64,000 bases of DNA from Candidatus Oxydemutatoraceae bacterium (GTDB taxonomy: Bacteria > Pseudomonadota > Gammaproteobacteria > Poriferisulfidales > Oxydemutatoraceae), in the NCBI GenBank assembly GCA_965226235.1, contig OZ245335.1, forward strand, positions 1,260,427 through 1,324,426. Direction: 5' to 3'. The stretch's first letter is position 1. Each line of letters begins with the position of its first letter. Position numbers and translations under genes: made by a program. Below are positions 9,263 to 63,706 of this stretch, one piece after another. The notes beneath the pieces are model-generated. The model had not been told where the DNA came from, did not search any database, and was given only the letters and a program-made list of their open reading frames with translations.

Positions 9263-10165
9263 ATGTTTATTCTGGGTGTAGGAGCACCAAAAACAGGGAC
9301 GACCTGGCTCGCCGCGTATATAAGGCAATCACCCCGGTATGTGCGGTTTTGTGCAGAAAAAGAACAGCATGTCTGGGATCGCGTATGTATCCCATTAATG
9401 AAAGGACGGAAAAGAAAACTCCGCAGAATCTTGCAGGACTTGCTCCGTACCCGCCGCCGGTGGGACCATCTGCGGCAGTATATTGCGTTGTGGTTAATGG
9501 AAAAAATCCCGGCTTATTATTTTTACCGCCTGCAACGGACGCTTCGCAACAAGGAAAATATCACGCTGGATATCACCCCGGCTTACATGGGGCTGTCCAA
9601 AGAGGATTTCATCAAAATCAGAAACGGGCTGAAAAAATACGACATACGGACGAAAGTCGTGTTTCTCATGAGAGACCCTGTCGAAAGATGCATCAGCCAC
9701 TATGAAGCAGAAGAAGCATCACGCTTGAAGCGAGGCATCAACCTGTCCGGATCGGTGTTTGCATTACCGGACAAGGCAGGGCTGAAAAAATATTGTACAT
9801 TGGCAAAAAACAGGTTCAAAACAAGCTATCAAGATACGATCGCGAACCTGGAGGCTGTGTTTGCGCCGGAACAGTTGTTTTTCGGCATCTATGAAAACCT
9901 TTTCGAAGAACAGTCCATCGCCGCGCTGTCCGATTTCCTGGAATTACCCTATAATCCCGCGTTTGCCAAACGATGCATCAAGCCCGCGTTTTCCAAACGA
10001 CACATCAAGCCCACACAGTACCCCGATATAAATATCGACGACGACACAAGAAGATTCATCGCCGAAGAATACAGAAGCACCTATGCGTTTTGCGCAACCC
10101 GGTTTCCGGTAACCGGAAACTTGTGGAGAGGGTTCCAGTGGATCCGGACGAACGCCCCTTCCTGA
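9263..10165 (+). CDS. PAPS-dependent sulfotransferase-family protein, tandem copy 1
   Basis: The 5'-PSB motif GAPKTGTTW and the 3'-PB motif KVVFLMRDPVERCISHY correspond to PKSGTTW and KVVYVARNAKDVAVSYY in eukaryotic cytosolic sulfotransferases. Local GC is about 50%. Confidence 0.7.
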   Translation: MFILGVGAPKTGTTWLAAYIRQSPRYVRFCAEKEQHVWDRVCIPLMKGRKRKLRRILQDLLRTRRRWDHLRQYIALWLMEKIPAYYFYRLQRTLRNKENITLDITPAYMGLSKEDFIKIRNGLKKYDIRTKVVFLMRDPVERCISHYEAEEASRLKRGINLSGSVFALPDKAGLKKYCTLAKNRFKTSYQDTIANLEAVFAPEQLFFGIYENLFEEQSIAALSDFLELPYNPAFAKRCIKPAFSKRHIKPTQYPDINIDDDTRRFIAEEYRSTYAFCATRFPVTGNLWRGFQWIRTNAPS

Positions 10166-37941: not shown

Positions 37942-38273
37942 CGGTTTCAAACAAGCGGCTTGTGCATAACCCGGTGATTCAATCCAGGGGGTGGTATGAA
38001 TTGTACACGGAAGTCCCACCCAGGCTTCATCGTTTCCGTTGCAGGAATTTTCATCTTCTCCCGGATGGCACAATGGGCCTCATCTGCAACCCGGCTTCCG
38101 GTGACGCGCCCCTTCGCTTCGCTCTTGCTTCACAATCACCATGACAACCGTTTGCTGTGTCCTTGTTCAGGGAGTTTCGGTGCAGTGGTGCAATATCAGC
38201 TTTTCCTTTATCATTGTCCGAAGGCCAAACGAAATCGACAAGATCGAGCCTGATCTGCTCCGGTAGCCCCCAC

Positions 38274-41062: not shown

Positions 41063-41719
41063 TCAGTGTCCCTTGCGCGCGGCGTTCTGCCGCTCTCGCT
41101 TGACGGCAAGAATAGCTGCTTCAACGCGTGAGCGCATCCCGAGCTTCCTCAGAATGGACTTTACGTGTAGCTTGACGGTGCCGTCGGAAATACCAAGCTC
41201 CTTGGCAATCAATTTGTTGCTCTGCCCCTCCGCCAGCAGATGAAAGGTCTCCCTCTCTCTCGGCGTGAGGCTGTCAAGCGAGTCTGGCTCCTTGATTCCC
41301 TGGCTGACAAGCTGCAAATACTTGCTATGCATCTCCGGCGCCACTTCGGTACCCCCCGCAATGACCCTGCGTAAAGTAACAACCAGTTCGTCTGGCTCCA
41401 TGTCCTTGAGAAAGTAACCACGGGCACCCCACTGCATCGCATCGGCAAGATCTTTTTCAGCCCGGCTGGTCGTCAGGATAATAACCGGCACCGTAGCGCT
41501 CTGATCGGCCAATTCCTTGAGCACGCTGATCCCGTCCATTTCAGGCATTCTCACATCCAGAAGCACCGCGCTCGGCTGCAGTTGCCTCACCAGATCAACA
41601 CCCTCCCTGCCGTCTCCCAGAGAAGCAGCGACTTCTATGTTGCGCAACTTGAGTAAACCCTCAAGACCCTCCCGAAACAGGGTGTGGTCGTCGATGAGAA
41701 TCACCTTGATCTTATCCAT
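41063..41719 (-). CDS. NarL/FixJ-family response regulator (REC + LuxR HTH)
   Basis: The REC domain reads MDKIKVILIDDH...LLDVRMPEMDG. The C-terminal GerE/LuxR HTH reads LTPRERETFHLLAEGQSNKLIAKELGISDGTVKLHV. Confidence 0.85.
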   Translation of the reverse strand: MDKIKVILIDDHTLFREGLEGLLKLRNIEVAASLGDGREGVDLVRQLQPSAVLLDVRMPEMDGISVLKELADQSATVPVIILTTSRAEKDLADAMQWGARGYFLKDMEPDELVVTLRRVIAGGTEVAPEMHSKYLQLVSQGIKEPDSLDSLTPRERETFHLLAEGQSNKLIAKELGISDGTVKLHVKSILRKLGMRSRVEAAILAVKRERQNAARKGH

Positions 41720-42791
41720 CGGTCGCTGCCTCCCTTGGCTCGTGGTGGTGCGAGGGAACGGAGAAATCCAGGGAAACATGCACGCCTTCGCCCACTTCGC
41801 TTTCAATGGACAGCTTGCCTCCAATACGCAGTGCGCGGTTGTGCATGCCGCCCAGCCCGATGTGTTCGTCGCTGTCGCCCGGGTTGACCCTCATCCCGAC
41901 GCCATCGTCTTCTATCAGCACCCGATAATGGCCACTTTCGTTGCTACGCACCATCACCCTCACCACCGATGCCCTGGCGTGCTTTTGCACGTTGTTCAGC
42001 GCTTCCTGAATAACCCTGAGCACCTGGACCTCGTACTCCTGCGGCATCGCCTCCCGTGACCAGGCTTTTTGGAAAAACAACTGCACCCCGGGGTTGTCCT
42101 CGCGAAATTTGAGGATCAACTGGTCAACCGTACGCTCGAGGCTTCCCATCAGCGAGGTGGTGTGGAAATAGCCGATCAAATCGCGTATCTCGCGATTGGC
42201 CGTGCGCAATGTATCACTCAGTTTTTCAAACTGCTTGCGTAACAGTTGCGTGTCGCCGCTTTGCAGGCTTTCTTCGAGTACGTGCACCTGGAACCGCATA
42301 CCACCGATCGTTTGTGCCAGCGAATCATGCAATTCGTAAGCGATCCAGGCGCGTTCCTGCATCCGTGTCTTGTCGGTCAAGTGTTCGGTATAACGCTGCA
42401 CTTGCACATTGCCACGGGATGATTGCGCTTCCAGCATATGCGCTAATGAATTGAAGTCATGGCACAGGCCGTTGAAGCTGCTGCCGCGGACTTCGGCAAC
42501 GCGCGAAGCGAGGTTGCCGGCATGAATGTCCAGCAACCAGGCCCGCAGGTTGTTCGACGGCTTGACGTAATCCAGCCACAGAAACACGGCGGACACCGCC
42601 AGCAACACCAGCAACGCCCCCAACGCCACGCCCTGCCACCTCTGCCATAGTGCGTAATCCGACAGGTAAACGAGAATCGCCCCCCCTGCCAGAGAAAGCG
42701 CCGCCAGCAACAGAACCATCGCACGAAAGTGGATCAGTTGCTCGGTAGCCCGCCAGTCCAGGCTGGTTCTTGAACTCTCTTGCCAGAACAT
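41712..42791 (-). CDS. Sensor histidine kinase with HisKA_3-type (NarX/NarQ class) dimerisation domain and HATPase
   Basis: Two N-terminal TM helices, the H-box YELHDSLAQT, and the ATP-lid region DDGVGM...GLGGM. It overlaps the response regulator start. Confidence 0.8.
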   Translation of the reverse strand: MFWQESSRTSLDWRATEQLIHFRAMVLLLAALSLAGGAILVYLSDYALWQRWQGVALGALLVLLAVSAVFLWLDYVKPSNNLRAWLLDIHAGNLASRVAEVRGSSFNGLCHDFNSLAHMLEAQSSRGNVQVQRYTEHLTDKTRMQERAWIAYELHDSLAQTIGGMRFQVHVLEESLQSGDTQLLRKQFEKLSDTLRTANREIRDLIGYFHTTSLMGSLERTVDQLILKFREDNPGVQLFFQKAWSREAMPQEYEVQVLRVIQEALNNVQKHARASVVRVMVRSNESGHYRVLIEDDGVGMRVNPGDSDEHIGLGGMHNRALRIGGKLSIESEVGEGVHVSLDFSVPSHHHEPREAATDG

Positions 42792-42810: not shown

Positions 42811-43137
42811 CTAAGCGCCTAGAGGAATGTGCTGAGGACGCACATAGGAAGGATCGTTGGGATTCAGAAAGATGAAATGAAACTGCCCTGCCTCCAGCTC
42901 GACGTAATCTATCGTCATGTCCCTTACCAGGTCGCGCGACCCACTCGATATGACAACGTCGATATCCTGCGCGCGAATCAGCAGGTCTCCCTCCCAGGTC
43001 TTGTCGTCAAAACCCATCAGGTAATGAAATCTGCCGTCCTTGCGCTCCACGGCAATGCGCAGCGGCAAACCTTCCGCCGCCCCAGCACTGGCACTTTCCC
43101 TGATTTGCCTCGCCGCAGATTCCGTCAGCTTGATCAT
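42811..43137 (-). CDS. dsrR: DsrR, an IscA/HesB-like protein lacking the conserved cysteines
   Basis: It has the HesB fold pattern (LTESAARQI...LRIAVE...GFDD...DIDVVISSG) and a C-terminus FHFIFLNPNDPSYVRP with no Cys. Cysteine-less IscA homologs encoded after dsrN are known as DsrR in Allochromatium vinosum. Confidence 0.65.
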   Translation of the reverse strand: MIKLTESAARQIRESASAGAAEGLPLRIAVERKDGRFHYLMGFDDKTWEGDLLIRAQDIDVVISSGSRDLVRDMTIDYVELEAGQFHFIFLNPNDPSYVRPQHIPLGA

Positions 43138-43377
43138 TTGAAAAACCAACGCCCGTTACAACCACATCTGCCCGCACCAAGCATCGGGTTGTGGCGGCGT
43201 GCGTTGCTCCTCCCGCCCACTATATTACACCCCTCCCACTGTGGCTCAATGGAACCAGGCTTCGCCAGCATTGCGCAACCGACCGGTGAGCCCACCGGCC
43301 TACGGGGACGGTACTCACGAAACAGGAACCTCGCCACCCGGACAGTCGCCGCTGTGCTCACAACAAGCAAGCGAAAC

Positions 43378-43820
43378 TCACCCGACCAACCCGACAAACC
43401 TGGCAAATCTCGCGGGCCAACTGCTGTTGGTCGAGCGCAAATGAACAAAGGACGCCAGCAGGTTGGCGTATACGATCCCATCCTTGCCACCACCGATACC
43501 ATCGCCTCGCAATACCTTGTAAGCGGTTTTCATCTCGCCACCGAAATTGACCAGCTTTGCATGATGAAACTCGTGGCCCGCGTAAACGGACAGCGCGTCA
43601 TCGCTGTTCGTCCAGGGCATATCAAGGGTTTCCTCCACTCGCACGTACCCTCTAGCCTAAATGACACCGACCATCGCATGGCGCTCCTTCCGCCAAGCTA
43701 TGCTGCGGCTCAAGTACATCAACCCGCCGCATTCAGCATAGGCAGGAAGCCCCCCTTCGATAGCACCTTTGACCGCCGCGCGTAAAGAGATGTTGGCTTC
43801 CAAGTCGGCGGCATGAACCT
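43378..43820 (-). pseudogene. Decayed duplicate of the dsrN 3' end (last ~148 codons), copy 1
   Basis: ORFs 43657..43896 and 43378..43644 together reproduce ...VHAADLEANISLRAAVKGAIEGGLPAYAECGGLMYLSRSIAWRKERHAMVGVI / RVEETLDMPWTNSDD...ARFARFV of intact DsrN (49110..50633). It carries a TAG nonsense codon and a 30-bp deletion relative to the intact gene. Confidence 0.75.
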
Positions 43821-44087
43821 TTATCGCCAAATTGATCGTCACCCAACCAGGACCGTGGTCTTCGCCTCCCTTCCCGGCGCGACACCGACACCACATCCCA
43901 AGGCGCGCACAAAAACATCAACTTCTCCAACAATTTTCCGGCTTCGTCCATCGTCTCCTCCAGATCGCACGGAAAAGACCATCCTACTCCTCATCCCACA
44001 CAAAATCTCGAAGAACCAAATTATAATGGCGTAATTGCAGGCACCGGAAATTCGAGCAGGTATCAAGTCGCTGGAGGAAAATGCCCC

Positions 44088-46082
44088 ATGAATATCCCCC
44101 TCGGGAAAAAATTGTTCTTTTCGGCAATCTACCTCGCGTTAATTACCGGCGCGCATTTTTCCGGATTAAGCCTCGTCAGCGGTAACCTGTGGATCAAGGT
44201 CTTCTGGAAAGATTTGCAAATCCTTCTGCTGTCAGCATTGGTGCTGATGGTTGTTTATATCGTCTCATTCTCGGCTTTTTTACTCTCCGGAAAAAAACGG
44301 GAACTGCGTTGGCCAATAGTGTGTTTCCTGTTCAGTCTTGGAGTGGTGTGTTTTTCGTACATGATGCTCTTTCCCAAAGGTGTATTTCTCCAGAAGGTCA
44401 GTGTCAGTGTGGTCTTGTTCTCATGGATTGCAATTGCTCTGGTTTTTTTCCAGACAGAAGCAACTTTCCTGTCGAAAGTCATGCGTTATGTTCTGGGAAT
44501 CATTTTGTTTGCCATTAGCATGACCTCGATATACAAGCATCAGGATCTGCTGGAGATGCTTTTTTATCCGAAGGCTCTGATTGCAGATCAGTCTGTTGAG
44601 AAAAAATTCGACAAGAAAGAATCAAAGATTCGCACAAGTTTTTATAACCTGTCCGCCATAGAGTATTCCATTTCAGATTACTACATACCGGCAAAACTGG
44701 CAAATATTCCCAGTTACCTTGGAGTGATCAATGACAAAAATTTTCTTGTCATTGATCGTCTCGGCAACATGTTTCATTTGTATCTGAAAAGCAACGCAAA
44801 AGAAAAGGCAACATTTGAAAAAGAGAATCTCTATAGAAGGATGCTGGCGGCAAGGTTCCCGATCAATTACCGGGAGGTCAACAAGTTCAACAAGTTCAAC
44901 AAGTCTTATTTTCGGGTACATGATTTGTATATAGAAAGAGAGAATGAGAGTGGAGAGCAACGATCACTGTACGTTTCCCATAGTTTCTGGAACGCTGAAA
45001 AGGAATGTTTTACTGTAAGAATCACAAAGATGACCCAGGATATTTCGGTGCTGCTGGAATCGCACGCCACACCGACGTGGCGTACGCTTTATGAAAGCAC
45101 TCCTTGCTTTCACAGATTATCTTCCGGCCACCAGGCAGGCGGCAGAATTGTCGGGATGGATGAGGAGAGTTTGCTGTTTACAATCGGCGATCACGGGTTT
45201 GATTCCGCAGAAGATCCGGGGAACTTTCCTCAGGATATTGATACGGCGTATGGGAAAATCTGGAAGATTAACCGTACTACCGGAGAATCTGACATGATTT
45301 CTCTGGGACACCGAAATCCTCAGGGGCTATATCGCGCGCCCAACGGAACAATTTGGTCGACCGAGCATGGGCCTGCAAGCGGCGACGAATTAAACAAGGT
45401 AAATGTCGGTGCCAACTATGGATGGCCACACGCATTGTACGGGACAAGTTACGGTGCGGAAACTTTGCGCGGCGAGGTAATTCAGAATGACCACGGAGAT
45501 TATGAGCATCCTGTGTTTGCATGGGTGCCTGCAATTGCTGTATCCGAGTTGATTGGAGTCGAAGGAGATTTGTTCCCGCTGTGGAAAGATAACCTCCTGG
45601 TTTCTTCCCTGAAAGCACAAACCTTGTTTCGCCTGCAAATACATGAAGATCGTGTTGTTTATAGTGAAGCCATTAAAATAGATAAAAGAATCCGGGATTT
45701 GGCACAGACTTCCAATGGAGAACTCCTTCTCTGGACAGATGACCAATCGCTGGTGCGATTGTTGCACAAGGAACAGCCCACAATAAGCAAGGGCGAACAG
45801 ATTTTCCAGGAAAAATGTGCTGCTTGTCATAACATGTGGCCTGATCATGCGCACGGGTTCGGTCCGAATCTACACAATGTATACGCAAGCAAAATTGCAA
45901 GACACTCCGACTACAACTACTCAAAAGCATTATTGGCACGAGCTCAGGACTCTTGGACCCGAAAAAATCTTGATCTTTTTCTGGAAAACTCCCTGCGTTT
46001 TGCGTCTGGCACTACCATGCAGCAAATAGAAATATCCGCCGCCGAAAGACAGACATTGATTCAATATATGAGGAACAATTGA
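44088..46082 (+). CDS. Membrane-anchored quinohemoprotein, copy 1. It has five N-terminal TM helices, a PQQ-dependent soluble glucose/sorbosone dehydrogenase (sGDH-family) beta-propeller domain, and a C-terminal class I cytochrome c domain.
   Basis: sGDH motifs HQAGGRIVGMDEESLLFTIGDHG and GHRNPQGLYRAPNGTIWSTEHGP...GANYGWP are present. The cytochrome c2-like domain has CAACH...GPNLHNVYASKIA...GTTM. The N-terminal 160 aa are strongly hydrophobic. The gene is AT-rich (about 45% GC). Confidence 0.8.
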   Translation: MNIPLGKKLFFSAIYLALITGAHFSGLSLVSGNLWIKVFWKDLQILLLSALVLMVVYIVSFSAFLLSGKKRELRWPIVCFLFSLGVVCFSYMMLFPKGVFLQKVSVSVVLFSWIAIALVFFQTEATFLSKVMRYVLGIILFAISMTSIYKHQDLLEMLFYPKALIADQSVEKKFDKKESKIRTSFYNLSAIEYSISDYYIPAKLANIPSYLGVINDKNFLVIDRLGNMFHLYLKSNAKEKATFEKENLYRRMLAARFPINYREVNKFNKFNKSYFRVHDLYIERENESGEQRSLYVSHSFWNAEKECFTVRITKMTQDISVLLESHATPTWRTLYESTPCFHRLSSGHQAGGRIVGMDEESLLFTIGDHGFDSAEDPGNFPQDIDTAYGKIWKINRTTGESDMISLGHRNPQGLYRAPNGTIWSTEHGPASGDELNKVNVGANYGWPHALYGTSYGAETLRGEVIQNDHGDYEHPVFAWVPAIAVSELIGVEGDLFPLWKDNLLVSSLKAQTLFRLQIHEDRVVYSEAIKIDKRIRDLAQTSNGELLLWTDDQSLVRLLHKEQPTISKGEQIFQEKCAACHNMWPDHAHGFGPNLHNVYASKIARHSDYNYSKALLARAQDSWTRKNLDLFLENSLRFASGTTMQQIEISAAERQTLIQYMRNN

Positions 46083-46237
46083 GTTCCTTGCGGACCAAAG
46101 GGCCAGCTCCATCAAACCCGGAGCCTTCTGGCAACCGGTGATCTTTCCCCTGTAATCCGGTTCATTTGGATTGAGAAAAAAACATTGTATTGGAGGCCAC
46201 CCATTTTTAGTGCCACGCCCGGCAGGCAAACGGGAGC

Positions 46238-46683
46238 TTATCCGACCGACCTGACAAACCTGGCAAATCTCGCGGGCCAACTGCTGTTGGTCGCGCGCAG
46301 ATGGACCAAGGACGCTAGCAGGTTGGCGTATACGATCCCATCCTTGCCACCACCGATACCATCGCCTCGCAATACCTTGTAAGCGGTTTTCATCTCGCCA
46401 CCGAAATTGACCAGCTTGCGCATGATGAAACTCGTGGCCCGCGTAAACGGACAGCGCGTCATCGCTGTTCGTCCAGGGCATATCAAGGAGTTTCCTCCAC
46501 TCGCACGTACCCTCTAGCCTGAATGACACCGACCATCGCATGGCGCTCCTTCCACCAAGCTATGCTGCGGCTCAAGTACATCAACCCGCCGCATTCAGCA
46601 TAGGCAGGAAGCCCCCCTTCGATAGCACCTTTGACCGCCGCGCGTAATAGAGATGTTGGCTTCCAAGTCGGCGGCATGAACCT
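46238..46683 (-). pseudogene. Decayed duplicate of the dsrN 3' end, copy 2
   Basis: ORFs 46483..46677 and 46238..46486 match the DsrN C-terminus. It shares the 30-bp deletion (QADAVMCERPCGRGY reduced to QARGY) with copy 1 and has an additional frameshift. Confidence 0.75.
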
Positions 46684-46950
46684 TTATCGCCAAATTGATC
46701 GTCACCCAACCAGGACCGTGGTCTTCGCCTCCCTTCCCGGCGCGACACCGACACCACATCCCAAGGCGCGCACAAAAACATCAACTTCTCCAACAATTTT
46801 CCGGCTTCGTCCATCGTCTCCTCCAGATCGCACGGAAAAGACCATCCTACTCCTCATCCCACACAAAATCTCGAAGAACCAAATTATAATGGCGTAATTG
46901 CAGGCACCGGAAATTCGAGCAGGTATCAAGTCGCTGGAGGAAAATGCCCC

Positions 46951-48954
46951 ATGAATATCCCCCTCGGGAAAAAATTGTTCTTTTCGGCAATCTACCTCGC
47001 GTTAATTACCAGCGCGCATTTTTCCGGATTAAGCCTCGTCAGCGGTAACCTGTGGATCAAGGTCTTCTGGAAAGATTTGCAAATCCTTCTGCTGTCAGCA
47101 TTGGTGCTGATGGTTGTTTATATCGTCTCATTCTCGGCTTTTTTACTCTCCGGAAAAAAACGGGAACTGCGTTGGCCAATAGTGTGTTTCCTGTTCAGTC
47201 TTGGAGTGGTGTGTTTTTCGTACGTGATGCTCTTTCCCAAAGGTGTATTTCTCCAGAAGGTCAGTGTCAGTGTGGTCTTGTTCTCATGGATTGCAATTGC
47301 TCTGGTTTTTTTCCAGACAGAAGCAACTTTCCTGTCGAAAGTCATGCGTTATGTTCTGGGAATCATTTTGTTTGCCATTAGCATGACCTCGATATACAAG
47401 CATCAGGATCTGCTGGAGATGCTTTTTTATCCGAAGGCTCTGATTGCAGATCAGTCTGTTGAGAAAAAGTTCGACAAGAAAGAATCAAAGATTCGCACAA
47501 GTTTTTATAACCTGTCCACCATAGAGTATTCCATTTCAGATTACTACATACCGGCAAAACTGGCAAATATTCCCAGTTACCTTGGAGTGATCAATGACAA
47601 AAATTTTCTTGTCATTGATCGTCTCGGCAACATGTTTCATTTGTATCTGAAAAGCAACGCAAAAGAAAAGGCAACATTTGAAAAAGAGAATCTCTATAGA
47701 AGGATGCTGGCGGCAAGGTTCCCGATCAATTACCGGGAGGTCAACAAGTTCAACAAGTTCAACAAGTTCAACAAGTCTTATTTTCGGGTACATGATTTGT
47801 ATATAGAAAGAGAGAATGAGAGTGGAGAGCAACGATCACTGTACGTTTCCCATAGTTTCTGGAACGCTGAAAAGGAATGTTTTACTGTAAGAATCACAAA
47901 GATGACCCAGGATATTTCGGTGCTGCTGGAATCGCACGCCACACCGACGTGGCGTACGCTTTATGAAAGCACTCCTTGCTTTCACAGATTATCTTCCGGC
48001 CACCAGGCAGGCGGCAGAATTGTCGGGATGGATGAGGAGAGTTTGCTGTTTACAATCGGCGATCACGGGTTTGATTCCACAGAAGATCCGGGGAACTTTC
48101 CTCAGGATATTGATACGGCGTATGGGAAAATCTGGAAGATTAACCGTACTACCGGAGAAGCTGACATGATTTCTCTGGGACACCGAAATCCTCAGGGGCT
48201 ATATCGCGCGCCCAACGGAACAATTTGGTCGACCGAGCATGGGCCTGCAAGCGGCGACGAATTAAACAAGGTAAATGTCGGTGCCAACTATGGATGGCCA
48301 CACGCATTGTACGGGACAAGTTACGGTGCGGAAACTTTGCGCGGCGAGGTAATTCAGAATGACCACGGAGATTATGAGCATCCTGTGTTTGCATGGGTGC
48401 CTGCAATTGCTGTATCCGAGTTGATTGGAGTCGAAGGAGATTTGTTCCCGCTGTGGAAAGATAACCTCCTGGTTTCTTCCCTGAAAGCACAAACCTTGTT
48501 TCGCCTGCAAATACATGAAGATCGTGTTGTTTATAGTGAAGCCATTAAAATAGATAAAAGAATCCGGGATTTGGCACAGACTTCCAATGGAGAACTCCTT
48601 CTCTGGACAGATGACCAATCGCTGGTGCGGTTGTTGCACAAGGAACAGCCCGCAATAAGCAAGGGCGAACAGATTTTCCAGGAAAAATGTGCTGCTTGTC
48701 ATAACATGTGGCCTGATCATGCGCACGGGTTCGGTCCGAATCTACACAATGTATACGCAAGCAAAATTGCAAGACACTCCGACTACAACTACTCAAAAGC
48801 ATTATTGGCACGAGCTCAGGACTCCTGGACCCGCAAAAATCTTGATCTTTTTCTGGAAAACTCCCTGCGTTTTGCGTCTGGCACTACCATGCAGCAAATA
48901 GAAATATCCGCCGACGAAAGACAGACATTGATTCAATATATGAGGAACAATTGA
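46951..48954 (+). CDS. Membrane-anchored PQQ-dependent dehydrogenase-cytochrome c fusion protein, copy 2 (667 aa)
   Basis: About 99% identical to copy 1, with around 8 amino-acid substitutions. It carries one extra 9-bp aacaagttc (NKF) repeat unit. Confidence 0.8.
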   Translation: MNIPLGKKLFFSAIYLALITSAHFSGLSLVSGNLWIKVFWKDLQILLLSALVLMVVYIVSFSAFLLSGKKRELRWPIVCFLFSLGVVCFSYVMLFPKGVFLQKVSVSVVLFSWIAIALVFFQTEATFLSKVMRYVLGIILFAISMTSIYKHQDLLEMLFYPKALIADQSVEKKFDKKESKIRTSFYNLSTIEYSISDYYIPAKLANIPSYLGVINDKNFLVIDRLGNMFHLYLKSNAKEKATFEKENLYRRMLAARFPINYREVNKFNKFNKFNKSYFRVHDLYIERENESGEQRSLYVSHSFWNAEKECFTVRITKMTQDISVLLESHATPTWRTLYESTPCFHRLSSGHQAGGRIVGMDEESLLFTIGDHGFDSTEDPGNFPQDIDTAYGKIWKINRTTGEADMISLGHRNPQGLYRAPNGTIWSTEHGPASGDELNKVNVGANYGWPHALYGTSYGAETLRGEVIQNDHGDYEHPVFAWVPAIAVSELIGVEGDLFPLWKDNLLVSSLKAQTLFRLQIHEDRVVYSEAIKIDKRIRDLAQTSNGELLLWTDDQSLVRLLHKEQPAISKGEQIFQEKCAACHNMWPDHAHGFGPNLHNVYASKIARHSDYNYSKALLARAQDSWTRKNLDLFLENSLRFASGTTMQQIEISADERQTLIQYMRNN

Positions 48955-49109
48955 GTTCCTTGCGGACCAAAGGGCCAGCTCCATCAAACCCGGAGCCTTC
49001 TGGCAACCGGTGATCTTTCCCCTGTAATCCGGTTCATTTGGATTGAGAAAAAAACATTGTATTGGAGGCCCCCCATTTTTAGTGCCACGCCCGGCAGGCA
49101 AACGGGAGC

Positions 49110-50633
49110 TTATCCGACCGACCTGACAAACCTGGCAAATCTCGCGGGCCAATCACTGTTGGTCGAGCGCAAATGAACAAAGGACGCCAGCAGGTTGGCG
49201 TATACGATCCCGTCCTTGCCACCACCGATACCGTCGCCTCGCAATACCTTGTAAGCGGTTTTCATCTCGCCACCGAAATTGACCAGCTTTGCATGATGAA
49301 ACTCGTGACCGGCGTAAACGGGCGTTGCGTCATCGCTGTTCGTCCAGGGCATGTCAAGGGTTTCCTCCACTCGCACGTACCCTCTGCCGCATGGGCGCTC
49401 GCACATGACGGCGTCAGCCTGAATGACACCGACCATCGCATGGCGCTCCTTCCGCCAAGCTATGCTGCGGCTCAAGTACATCAACCCGCCGCATTCAGCA
49501 TAGGCAGGAAGCCCCCCTTCGATAGCACCTTTGACCGCCGCGCGTAAAGAGATGTTGGCTTCCAGGTCGGCGGCATGAACCTCGGGGAACCCGCCACCTA
49601 TGAAAAGCGCGTCCACCGCGGGCAACCTGGCGTCGTGCAGCGCGTCGACAGCCACCAGCCTGAACCCGGCATGCGAGAGCGCCACGAAATCATCCGGGTA
49701 ATAAAAGGAAAAAGCAGCATCGAAAAAAACGCCCAGTGCCTTTTTGGAAGTCTGGTTGCTCCCGGCTCCGGACGGTGTGTTTTTCCGCATCGTCGACACG
49801 AAAGCTGCCGGGCGCTTGTCTTCGGCAGAAGTGCCCGCCGCGTCGGGAGCCTGCCGCTGGCCACCCTGATTGGGCGCGCGCGCAAAGGTGATGATTGCGT
49901 CCAGGTCCGTATTCTCGCTCACGATTTGCCGCATGGCTTCGACTCGCTCGGCAGCCTGCCGATGCTCGCGGCCAGGTATCAGACCGAGATGTCTCTGCGC
50001 CAATGACATGCGCCGCTCGCGCGGCAGGTGGCCGACGACGGGTACATCGGTGTAAGACGTTACGGCAGCTTCGAGTTTGCCCGCATGGCGCGAGCCGCCA
50101 ACCTTGTTGAGCACAACTCCCGCGATATGCACTTCACGGTCAAAATCAAGATAACCACGCAGCAAGGGAGCCACGCCTCGAGTCATACCCTCGCAGTCGA
50201 GCACCAGGATAACCGGAACACGAAGGAGTTTCGCTAAAGCAGCATTGCTGTCACTGCCATCGAGGGAGACGCCGTCGTAAAGGCCCTTGTTGGCTTCGAT
50301 CACAGCGATGATGTCAGGCTTCCCCTCCGCACCGGTGAGACCAGGGCGGCGAACGGCAGCATCGAGAAAAACGTCGCCGTCCCACCCGGCAGCGCATCGG
50401 CCAACAAACATGTCGACGATCTCTTCGGGTGTCTGGGTATTGAAGTCCAGGTTATAGCAAGCGCGCTTCGCGGCACTGCCAAGCCATTGAGGGTCAATGT
50501 AATCAGGCCCCTTTTTGAAGGGATACACCGCACGGCCCCGGCGCGTCAGTTCGGCGCACAGCCCGGTGGAGAATACGGTCTTGCCGGACGACTTGTGCGC
50601 TGCGCTGATCAGCAAGCGTGGGAAGGCAAACAC
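49110..50633 (-). CDS. dsrN: DsrN, siroheme amidase (CobB/CbiA-like cobyrinic acid a,c-diamide synthase homolog)
   Basis: A 507 aa protein with an N-terminal ATP-binding CobQ/CobB/MinD-type domain (SAAHKSSGKT) and a C-terminal glutamine amidotransferase domain. It is the last gene of dsrABEFHCMKLJOPN. Confidence 0.85.
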   Translation of the reverse strand: MFAFPRLLISAAHKSSGKTVFSTGLCAELTRRGRAVYPFKKGPDYIDPQWLGSAAKRACYNLDFNTQTPEEIVDMFVGRCAAGWDGDVFLDAAVRRPGLTGAEGKPDIIAVIEANKGLYDGVSLDGSDSNAALAKLLRVPVILVLDCEGMTRGVAPLLRGYLDFDREVHIAGVVLNKVGGSRHAGKLEAAVTSYTDVPVVGHLPRERRMSLAQRHLGLIPGREHRQAAERVEAMRQIVSENTDLDAIITFARAPNQGGQRQAPDAAGTSAEDKRPAAFVSTMRKNTPSGAGSNQTSKKALGVFFDAAFSFYYPDDFVALSHAGFRLVAVDALHDARLPAVDALFIGGGFPEVHAADLEANISLRAAVKGAIEGGLPAYAECGGLMYLSRSIAWRKERHAMVGVIQADAVMCERPCGRGYVRVEETLDMPWTNSDDATPVYAGHEFHHAKLVNFGGEMKTAYKVLRGDGIGGGKDGIVYANLLASFVHLRSTNSDWPARFARFVRSVG

Positions 50634-63025: not shown

Positions 63026-63706
63026 ATGTACTGGGAAGACGCCACGCAGGAGCCTCGGTATAAAGTGCCGGAAGACATCATCGACCTGAGTTTTCGGATC
63101 GCTTGCCGCTGCCTGCCGACGAACTACGCCGCCCCGCTGGAGGCGGCACTGGTTACACAGTTGCCGTGGCTTGCCGACGAACCACTCGCTGGTATATATA
63201 TGGTGTATGGTGCCGAGTTCGGCAATGGCTGGGCGCGCCAGAGCGGTGACGACGCACTCGTGCACCTGTCCACGCGCGCACGCCTGAATCTACGCTTGCC
63301 GCGAGCACGCGTTGCACAGGCCACGCAACTGGAGAAACGGAACATCGACATCCTCGGGTACCCATGTGGCATAGGCAGGAGCAAAACACGTCTGTTGAGC
63401 ACACATGGCACTTTATTCACCCGGCACCTCTTCCCGGCCGGGCGCGACGAAGAAGCGTTTCTGGAAAACGCCGCCCGCATGCTTGGAGAGCTAGGCATCA
63501 AGCCGTTGAAAATGCTGGCAGGACTCAGCCGGACTATCGAGACCCCACAGCAAAAAATAGCAACCAGCAGCCTGATGATAGATGGACTGAAGCCACAGGA
63601 GTCGGTGCTGTTACAGCAACACGGATTGGGGAAACGGCGAACGCTGGGTTGTGGTATTTTCCTTCCCCACAAAAGCATCGCCCCCACGAGAGCATCACCG
63701 CCATAA
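63026..63706 (+). CDS. Cas6e (CasE/Cse3)-like RAMP endoribonuclease homolog, orphan
   Basis: The C-terminal segment ESVLLQQHGLGKRRTLGCGIFLP parallels E. coli CasE LIDLVQQGIGPAKSMGCGLLSLAPL, including the QQ-G-x-G...GCG glycine-rich loop. The N-terminal RLNLRLP resembles CasE LYFRLRANP. No other cas genes or repeats are in view. Confidence 0.4.
   Translation: MYWEDATQEPRYKVPEDIIDLSFRIACRCLPTNYAAPLEAALVTQLPWLADEPLAGIYMVYGAEFGNGWARQSGDDALVHLSTRARLNLRLPRARVAQATQLEKRNIDILGYPCGIGRSKTRLLSTHGTLFTRHLFPAGRDEEAFLENAARMLGELGIKPLKMLAGLSRTIETPQQKIATSSLMIDGLKPQESVLLQQHGLGKRRTLGCGIFLPHKSIAPTRASPP

Follow-up and report, generated by a model that had tools for sequence, protein, structure and literature searches.

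How did two copies of a low-GC gene come to separate dsrN from dsrR, which are neighbours in the canonical dsr operon? The question is raised by the dsr locus of Candidatus Oxydemutatoraceae bacterium (Gammaproteobacteria; GenBank assembly GCA_965226235.1, contig OZ245335.1). A stretch of 64,000 nucleotides (positions 1,260,427 to 1,324,426 of the forward strand) was analysed; further it is referred to as the window, and its own numbering is used for coordinates. The canonical operon of Allochromatium vinosum is dsrABEFHCMKLJOPNRS (PMC3368242, PMC4205035; the role of DsrR is cited in PMC11406059). Between dsrA and dsrN the genes of the window stand in the same order, and an IscA-like DsrR that lacks cysteines is encoded downstream. 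Unlike in A. vinosum, 6 kb with two foreign genes on the opposite strand lie before dsrR, and a two-component system, rather than dsrS, lies after it. The best explanation of this arrangement, to which we assign a probability of about 0.7, would be a dsrN-anchored homologous insertion-duplication of a foreign cassette, followed by unequal crossing-over and gene conversion. Each of these processes is already known; what is new here is a natural example.

The inserted array occupies positions 43378–49109 and adjoins an intact dsrN (49110–50633, minus strand, 507 aa). The DsrN protein is a sirohaem-amidase/CobB-like a,c-diamide synthase according to Pfam and NCBIfam matches, and it matches CobB over its whole length (372 bits against a cutoff of 254). 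The array consists of two head-to-tail units of 2.86 kb. Each unit contains a fragment of the dsrN 3' end, a leader of 267 bp, a low-GC gene of 2 kb on the opposite strand (further called the cargo gene) and a tail of 155 bp. In a self-BLAST, positions 43382–46683 aligned with 46242–49582 at 97.4% identity over 3,344 columns, with 42 mismatches and 8 gap openings. Chance cannot account for a 3.3-kb repeat at 97%.

The 3' segment of dsrN was found three times by the repeat finder. The copies, all on the minus strand, are denoted A (43378–43820, a pseudogene fragment next to dsrR), B (46238–46683, joining the two units) and C (49110–49582, 473 nt, the repeated segment of the resident gene itself, with its TAA stop at 49110–49112). 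All three represent one contiguous segment of 443–473 bp, which starts some 20 nt beyond the stop codon of dsrN and extends to position 49582, where the repeat ends. In leader 1 (43821–44087, plus strand) a ribosome-binding site, GGAGGA, precedes the ATG of the cargo gene by 9 nt, and leader 2 (46684–46950, plus strand) is 100% identical to it. Cargo gene copy 1 (44088–46082, plus strand, 664 aa) is an intact open reading frame (ORF); copy 2 (46951–48954, plus strand) encodes 667 aa. Between the two ORFs there are 11 substitutions and a single in-frame indel of 9 bp; over the whole cassette stretch compared, the units differ by 17 substitutions and, again, an in-frame indel of 9 bp. Tail 1 (46083–46237) runs from the cargo stop to the stop codon of copy B, and tail 2 (48955–49109) adjoins the stop codon of the working dsrN; the identity of the tails is 99.4–100%. 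The GC content is 45% in the cargo, 59.9% in dsrN and 56.0% in the whole window, and at third codon positions (GC3) it is 50% in the cargo against 65–67% in dsrN.

Most of this anatomy had been described in an earlier, sequence-only reading of the window. Its two direct-repeat units with the parts listed above, its tail abutting the intact dsrN stop, its low-GC cargo and its inactivating changes in the pseudo-copies (a 30-bp deletion shared by both, a TAG codon in copy A and a frameshift in copy B, where we count three 1-nt insertions) were all recovered by self-BLAST and alignments. So was its IscA-like dsrR without cysteines (42811–43137, minus strand), whose product matches Pfam Fe-S_biosyn and NCBIfam IscA/ErpA-type families and contains zero Cys residues. 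The distance of 5.7 kb that it gave between dsrN and dsrR is right for the array itself, whereas the full gap from the dsrR start to the dsrN stop is 5,972 bp, of which 240 bp (43138–43377) are the native intergenic region.

Relatives of the locus, L001 and L086/L087, were found via a protein database; both come from ENA. In L001 (138-kb contig; DsrN 85% identical) a single cassette is present, and the order is dsrR, intergenic DNA, dsrN 3' fragment, leader, cargo, tail, dsrN. In L086/L087 (2.43-Mb contig; DsrN 79% identical) the site is empty, dsrN and dsrR being separated by 72 bp; dsrR is followed by the kinase and regulator genes, and the flanking gene order is otherwise that of the window. 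The window, L001 and L086 are nearly equidistant, with nucleotide identities of 84–87%, and L001 and L086 are marginally closer to each other (background sums of three-taxon sites 888/912/1096, that is, fractions of 0.31, 0.31 and 0.38). The closest genomes that bear names are Chromatiales metagenome-assembled genomes of Candidatus Oxydemutatoraceae/Porisulfidus type, about 2 Mb in size, and the literature on sponge microbiomes uses these names. Among 80 gammaproteobacterial loci examined, dsrR lies 18–100 bp downstream of dsrN in about 45, and no homologue of the cargo was found near any of these. The canonical spacing (at most about 100 bp, same strand) is thus seen in L086 and in these 45 or so loci and is absent from the window. 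The L086 contig is not among the contigs carrying the 120 best cargo homologues listed. As a side observation, L086 and L087 are one dsr locus found at both ends of the linear ENA contig ctg836508_38x_l; the copies are 98–99.5% identical and differ by indels downstream of the response regulator, so that the repeat is either an untrimmed circular overlap holding two strains or a real large repeat.

The cassette does not share the divergence of its surroundings. Leader, cargo and tail are 97–98.5% identical between the window and L001 (97.8% for the leader, 98.7% for tail 1), while the flanking dsr genes are 77–90% identical, and the identity falls at the dsrN stop. Synonymous divergence (dS) between the window and L001 is 0.038–0.042 in the cargo and reaches 0.45 in dsrN and 0.47 in dsrP. 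Since the dS of the cassette is about ten times below that of the flanks, the cassette was shared horizontally, and the divergences indicate movement between lineages that are about 15% apart in nucleotides. Copies A and B and L001 all show the same junction of dsrN fragment and leader, AACCT|TTATCG; hence this illegitimate joint was made once. The source of the cassette was likely a relative of lower GC. Among the 88 loci compared, leader and tail had no nucleotide or translated match beyond L001. The cargo protein had no match in JGI metagenomes or IMG/VR, an exact 31-nt pattern from the leader had none in JGI metagenomes, and BLAST of the whole cassette gave no plasmid or phage match. Two leads were discarded: in L088, considered as a donor, dsrN is followed by nth and rnf genes and not by the cargo, and an apparent 70% match of the L001 dsrR region to the cargo showed no similarity on direct comparison.

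The manner of entry can be read from the three dsrN copies. Copy A has a TGA stop (43378–43380), a TAG codon (43657–43659) and an in-frame 30-bp deletion, which it has in common with copy B and which corresponds to resident positions 49386–49415. Copy B has a TAA stop and three separate private 1-nt insertions. Copy A runs into the native intergenic DNA (43138–43377), which is still joined to it and is homologous to that of L001 and L086, and it ends GGG-TGA, as does dsrN in L086. In contrast, copies B and C and the resident gene of L001 end GGA-TAA and are followed by the tail. Copies A and B agree with L086 at positions 49308, 49322 and 49326, where copy C has the state seen in both L001 copies. 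From the TGA stop, the native flank and the L086 states, copy A would be the displaced native end of dsrN; from the TAA stop and the tail on the resident gene, the working dsrN would have an imported end. A displaced native end together with an imported working end is what integration via dsrN homology predicts. This signature is a pattern at few sites.

A purely in situ origin by duplication and deletion, in which the cargo would be native between dsrR and dsrN, was rejected, because copy A is natively contiguous with intergenic DNA, as in L086. The comparison of dsrN-dsrR junctions among the relatives points the same way: L086 is empty, L001 has one cassette with a dsrN fragment and the same junction, and neither of them carries the gene natively between dsrN and dsrR without dsrN fragments.

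The proposed course of events is as follows. A foreign single-gene cassette (leader, cargo and tail) would have arrived on one molecule with the 3' portion of a related dsrN and would have integrated by homologous recombination anchored in dsrN, with no site-specific recombinase or transposase. The product would have Campbell topology: copy A stays on the native intergenic DNA and dsrR, where it would decay, and the working dsrN would be re-completed by the incoming 3' end with its TAA stop and the tail. The direct repeats of 443–473 bp would then become substrates for unequal crossing-over between copies C and A, yielding copy B and the second cassette, and gene conversion would have patched the three dsrN copies. 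The same repeats would allow precise loss or excision. The predicted donor would carry the cargo natively convergent with dsrN. We infer RecA-type recombination as the agent and either a circle or a linear fragment as the incoming DNA.

A conventional element moved by an enzyme in trans (an integron cassette, a non-autonomous transposon or an Xer-dependent element), with the dsrN repeats as its target duplication, would also present itself as a single promoter-proximal gene with short non-coding ends and foreign GC, present in some relatives and absent from others. However, a duplication of 443–473 bp far exceeds any transposase target duplication, and the repeat boundary by the stop codon fades over about 20 nt of homology, with no sharp site. 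Terminal inverted repeats were not found (best end match 9, against a shuffle mean of 7.6 and maximum of 12), the tail has no attC-like hairpin or terminator-like fold (z-scores against shuffled sequences: plus strand +1.08, minus strand −0.97), and tRNA and Rfam scans of the region were empty. None of the 26 window ORFs scanned encodes an integrase or transposase; among the L001 genes flanking the cassette there is no integrase and a sole transposase, that of an unrelated insertion sequence (IS) about 8 kb away. Such an element is hardly credible here.

Several points weigh against our explanation. The junction-proximal part of copy A is only 88.6% identical to the L001 pseudo-copy, although the adjoining leader is 97.8% identical. 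A donor-type, nearly identical junction-proximal part is expected, so that either extra gene conversion from the resident copy or a duplication older than the present cassette allele has to be assumed. Further, the affinity of the window to L001 reaches 380 nt past the repeated arm into dsrN. Over about 850 nt of the dsrN 3' end (49110–49960), three-taxon sites group the window with L001 (120/41/33 against the background of 888/912/1096; chi-square p ~1e-18), and the identity of the window to L001 in this tract is intermediate, 88–93%. A circle with the 473-bp arm only cannot explain the excess of 380 nt, and a longer linear fragment or two events would be required. Both a longer linear fragment with alternative sister-chromatid pairing and an older import followed by a recent cassette swap fit the tract beyond the arm. 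In addition, no donor of the cassette was found, and cargo-occupied sites in the collections come from two genomes only; the copy number is taken from one metagenome-derived assembly; and sequence alone can show neither a circular form nor RecA dependence. By its divergence the tract 49110–49960 also stands as a third tier, intermediate between background and cassette, and is only partly accounted for.

These features bring in a different history, in which a single ancestral insertion-duplication was inherited vertically, L086 lost it precisely, and the near-identity of the cassettes is due to a later double-crossover allelic replacement between lineages, with neither a circle nor repeated integration. 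On a near-star tree in which L001 and L086 are slightly closer to each other, ancestral presence needs a loss; recombination between the repeats would restore the empty site without a scar. The window and L001 have the junction in common, the pseudo-copies are old and diverged (window copy A against L001 about 88%) with weakly aligning intergenic DNA, and the intermediate-identity tract in the 3' half of dsrN suggests layered recombination, all of which suits this history. It would still need horizontal movement of the cassette. Besides, the high-identity tract matches the edges of the cassette: its left limit is the junction, and its right limit lies about 45 nt inside dsrN. It would be a coincidence if random crossovers in 85%-identical flanks hit these edges. 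We consider an ancestral insertion unlikely.

Insertion-duplication anchored in dsrN has a bolder extension. The cassette with one dsrN repeat might be a recombinase-free self-propagating unit that loops out as a circle via the flanking repeats. If so, the circle would re-enter dsrN of other lineages by host homologous recombination and rebuild the repeats each time, and it would constitute a natural element similar to a suicide vector that attaches through a piece of a conserved host gene and circulates among related sulfur-oxidising symbionts. We put this forward tentatively and think it somewhat improbable.

The second unit seems to have arisen by unequal crossing-over. Copy B ends on its left with the tail and TAA, as copy C does; it is 100% identical to copy C in the tail and 93.5% in the first 46 nt. 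Further along it follows copy A, with 99.4% identity in region III (resident positions 49207–49385) and 98.8% in region V (49416–49582). By this region comparison and the site table, copy B is a hybrid that resembles C on its left and A on its right, including the 30-bp deletion and A-specific states. Such a hybrid is expected when copy C of one chromatid recombines unequally with copy A of the other. The window cargo copies are each other's closest relatives (dS 0.009): L001 has 52 unique differences, cargo 1 has 18 and cargo 2 has 8. As the window cassettes are sisters, their duplication is the youngest event, and the divergences indicate the order of lineage split, then cassette sharing, then duplication.

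The joint formed by tail, copy B and leader also bears on the question of whether the second unit could be an assembly artefact, produced by concatenation of two strain haplotypes with one cassette each. The genome does come from a metagenome-type assembly, and the only related occupied genome, L001, has one copy. Yet this joint, with its TAA end, 30-bp deletion and private insertions, would occur in neither single-copy haplotype, the units differ by the 42 mismatches and 8 gap openings given above, and both cargo proteins are found on the same 2.1-Mb contig in NCBI and ENA. An artefact of this kind is very unlikely, and unequal crossing-over between the repeats is retained as the source of the second unit.

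After insertion the copies seem to have continued to exchange sequence. Copy C contains patches identical to the L001 copies where A and B retain outgroup states. Copies A and C are 100% identical over 49156–49206, which indicates gene conversion, and 98.8% identical over 49416–49582. In the latter region the pseudo-copy of L001 reaches only about 89% identity with any of the other copies; it also has an insertion of 61 nt and a terminal deletion of 95 nt of its own. We read the mosaic structure of the copies as a probable outcome of repeated gene conversion. At L001 positions ~9475–9535, the 61-nt insertion, which includes a 19-nt duplication, is located exactly where copies A and B carry the 30-bp deletion (43653/43654 and 46515/46516); this spot looks like a local hotspot of rearrangement.

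These relations alter the mechanism given in the sequence-only reading in part. The pseudo-copies were taken there as older than the nearly identical cargo genes because they carry different inactivating mutations; this simple order does not hold if copy A is the displaced native end, copy B was born at the duplication and all copies are conversion mosaics. Campbell-type integration of a circle with a dsrN homology arm agrees with the topology (native flank and TGA at copy A, TAA and tail at the others), but an arm-only circle does not agree with the affinity extending 380 nt beyond the arm. Amplification by unequal crossing-over, also proposed there, is supported by the hybrid copy B and by the copy number of one in L001 against two in the window, and the absence of a transposase or integrase is borne out by the ORF scan.

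Campbell-type insertion-duplication is the single-crossover homologous integration of circular DNA, as with suicide vectors or in the formation of high-frequency recombination (Hfr) strains via shared IS copies. The array resembles it in that the insert lies between direct repeats of the homologous segment, one repeat being a truncated fragment and the other restoring the gene. In a Campbell insertion the repeats are reciprocal chimeras of donor and recipient that allow excision and amplification. Here TGA/TAA and the three diagnostic sites fit, and the junction-proximal half of copy A is resident-like. Unlike the laboratory cases, the example is natural and comes from an uncultured symbiont-type genome, and the arm is a fragment of a metabolic gene and not an IS or a cloned fragment. 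Unlike with a Campbell circle having one arm, the donor-like tract exceeds the arm, and the circle is a putative intermediate.

Other known processes share single features with the array. Neisserial minimal mobile elements are cassettes without mobility genes that are swapped via the homology of conserved flanking genes; they replace the DNA between two conserved genes without duplication of a flank, whereas here one flank is duplicated. In homology-facilitated illegitimate recombination, homology on one side suffices and the other joint can be illegitimate; the AACCT|TTATCG joint resembles the illegitimate side. In pneumococcus, merodiploidy arises when a partly repeated linear fragment enters alternative pairing of sister chromatids, producing a tandem duplication via unequal crossing-over (Johnston et al. 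2013, PMC3784515). A process of this type, triggered by transformation, would explain the donor tract beyond the repeat. The pneumococcal duplications span 100–900 kb, are bordered by IS861 remnants and occur in a competent Gram-positive bacterium (PMC3784515), while here the unit is 2.9 kb long and the repeat is a gene end. In Burkholderia thailandensis, an IS-mediated, RecA-dependent tandem duplication forms between direct repeats (PMC9946442). The window shares with RecA-dependent duplication-amplification the head-to-tail units, the hybrid joint repeat and a copy number that varies among close relatives. Unlike in the Burkholderia case, the repeats were made by the insertion itself and are only about 450 bp long, and the duplication is known from its sequence only.

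Empty, single and double sites thus constitute a natural series in which a gene without a mobility function would gain a place in a conserved operon, pass between lineages that differ by about 15% and become amplified. For this, homologous recombination by the host and a piece of the target gene would suffice. The locus also calls for caution in annotation: the dsrN copy that looks decayed would be the original end, and the working dsrN would have a foreign 3' end.

The cargo itself is a membrane-associated enzyme by its predicted architecture. Both copies have Pfam matches; the cargo scores 183 bits for GSDH (PF07995), where the cutoff is 25, and 31 bits for Cytochrom_C, where it is 21.3. The protein has five N-terminal transmembrane helices, a propeller of the pyrroloquinoline quinone (PQQ)-type glucose/sorbosone dehydrogenases and a C-terminal class I cytochrome c domain. 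In the AlphaFold model of cargo 2 (mean predicted local distance difference test score, pLDDT, 84) the helices occupy residues 5–150, the propeller 175–563 and the cytochrome c domain 571–666, with a single CAACH haem motif at residue 580. Sequence matches in PDB are 7CDY and 2G8S. A Foldseek search with the model also returned both, with an E-value of 4.5e-20 and a target template modelling score (TM-score) of 0.77 for E. coli Asd (2G8S). The six-bladed propeller of the GSDH family is common to the cargo and to the soluble PQQ-dependent aldose sugar dehydrogenases (Asd/YliI, 2G8S; glucose dehydrogenase, 7CDY). Unlike these solved enzymes, to which its identity is only about 20%, the cargo adds the five membrane helices and the cytochrome c domain. 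The model suggests a membrane-anchored periplasmic quinoprotein dehydrogenase that would pass electrons via its own haem. All three known copies of the cargo are intact, and the ratio of nonsynonymous to synonymous divergence (dN/dS) is about 0.5. This raises the question of what benefit a membrane-anchored quinoprotein-cytochrome c dehydrogenase brings to a sulfur oxidiser with a small genome, given that it retains both copies intact.

More distant homologues (47–50% identity) occur in other small genomes of the same broad group, where they are ordinary genes of the chromosome and often form tandem pairs. Their GC content follows that of the host, and in a genome with 56% GC the GC3 of the homologues is about 60%. 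Tandem pairs at 47–50% identity in unrelated chromosomal contexts were observed in L002 (7689–9707 and 10001–12019) and L084 (10001–11986 and 12300–14354), and hence the cargo gene family seems to duplicate in tandem repeatedly. A homologue with 67% identity (L083) adjoins a thiolase gene. Within the cargo coding sequence, a 9-bp in-frame repeat encoding NKF (47741–47749) occurs three times in cargo 2 and L001 and twice in cargo 1, where it is absent after 44877. This indel of slippage type is the sole length difference between the two window cargo genes. Both cargo copies also contain in their coding sequence a near-perfect palindrome of 32 nt, GATCAATGACAAAAATTTTCTTGTCATTGATC (44726–44757 and 47589–47620).

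In the window about 6 kb with two opposite-strand genes separate dsrR from dsrN, which raises the question of whether dsrR, a regulator-like component, has a promoter of its own that drives its expression after the separation from the operon. Upstream of dsrR there is a promoter-like block, TTGAGC-N17-TAATAT (43222–43249, minus strand). The block is found in the window, L001 and L086 alike as TTGAnC-N17-TA(G/A)TAT. Since it is conserved even at the empty site of L086, an own promoter of dsrR is possible, and dsrR may always have had one, the block being a putative promoter. A scan with promoter and terminator consensus sequences performed no better on the region than on shuffles and did not flag the block upstream of dsrR. 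In the same intergenic region, about 100 nt of extra DNA (window 43250–43377) are common to the window and L001 and absent from L086, and the region folds weakly better than shuffles (z −2.0).

On the other side of dsrR, genes for a HisKA_3 histidine kinase and a LuxR-type response regulator (window 41063–42791) follow; of the 80 gammaproteobacterial loci examined, some 45 have the same two genes after dsrR, which suggests a conserved regulatory pair attached to the dsr operon. In L001, an insertion sequence with a DDE_Tnp_1 transposase (748–2040) lies between lytB and a glycosyltransferase gene; it is absent at the corresponding place of the window (~37955–38181). Near the right end of the window, an ORF at 63026–63706 (plus strand) has a strong Cas6 match (PF09559, E-value 1e-50), and a CRISPR-Cas locus may begin near this position.

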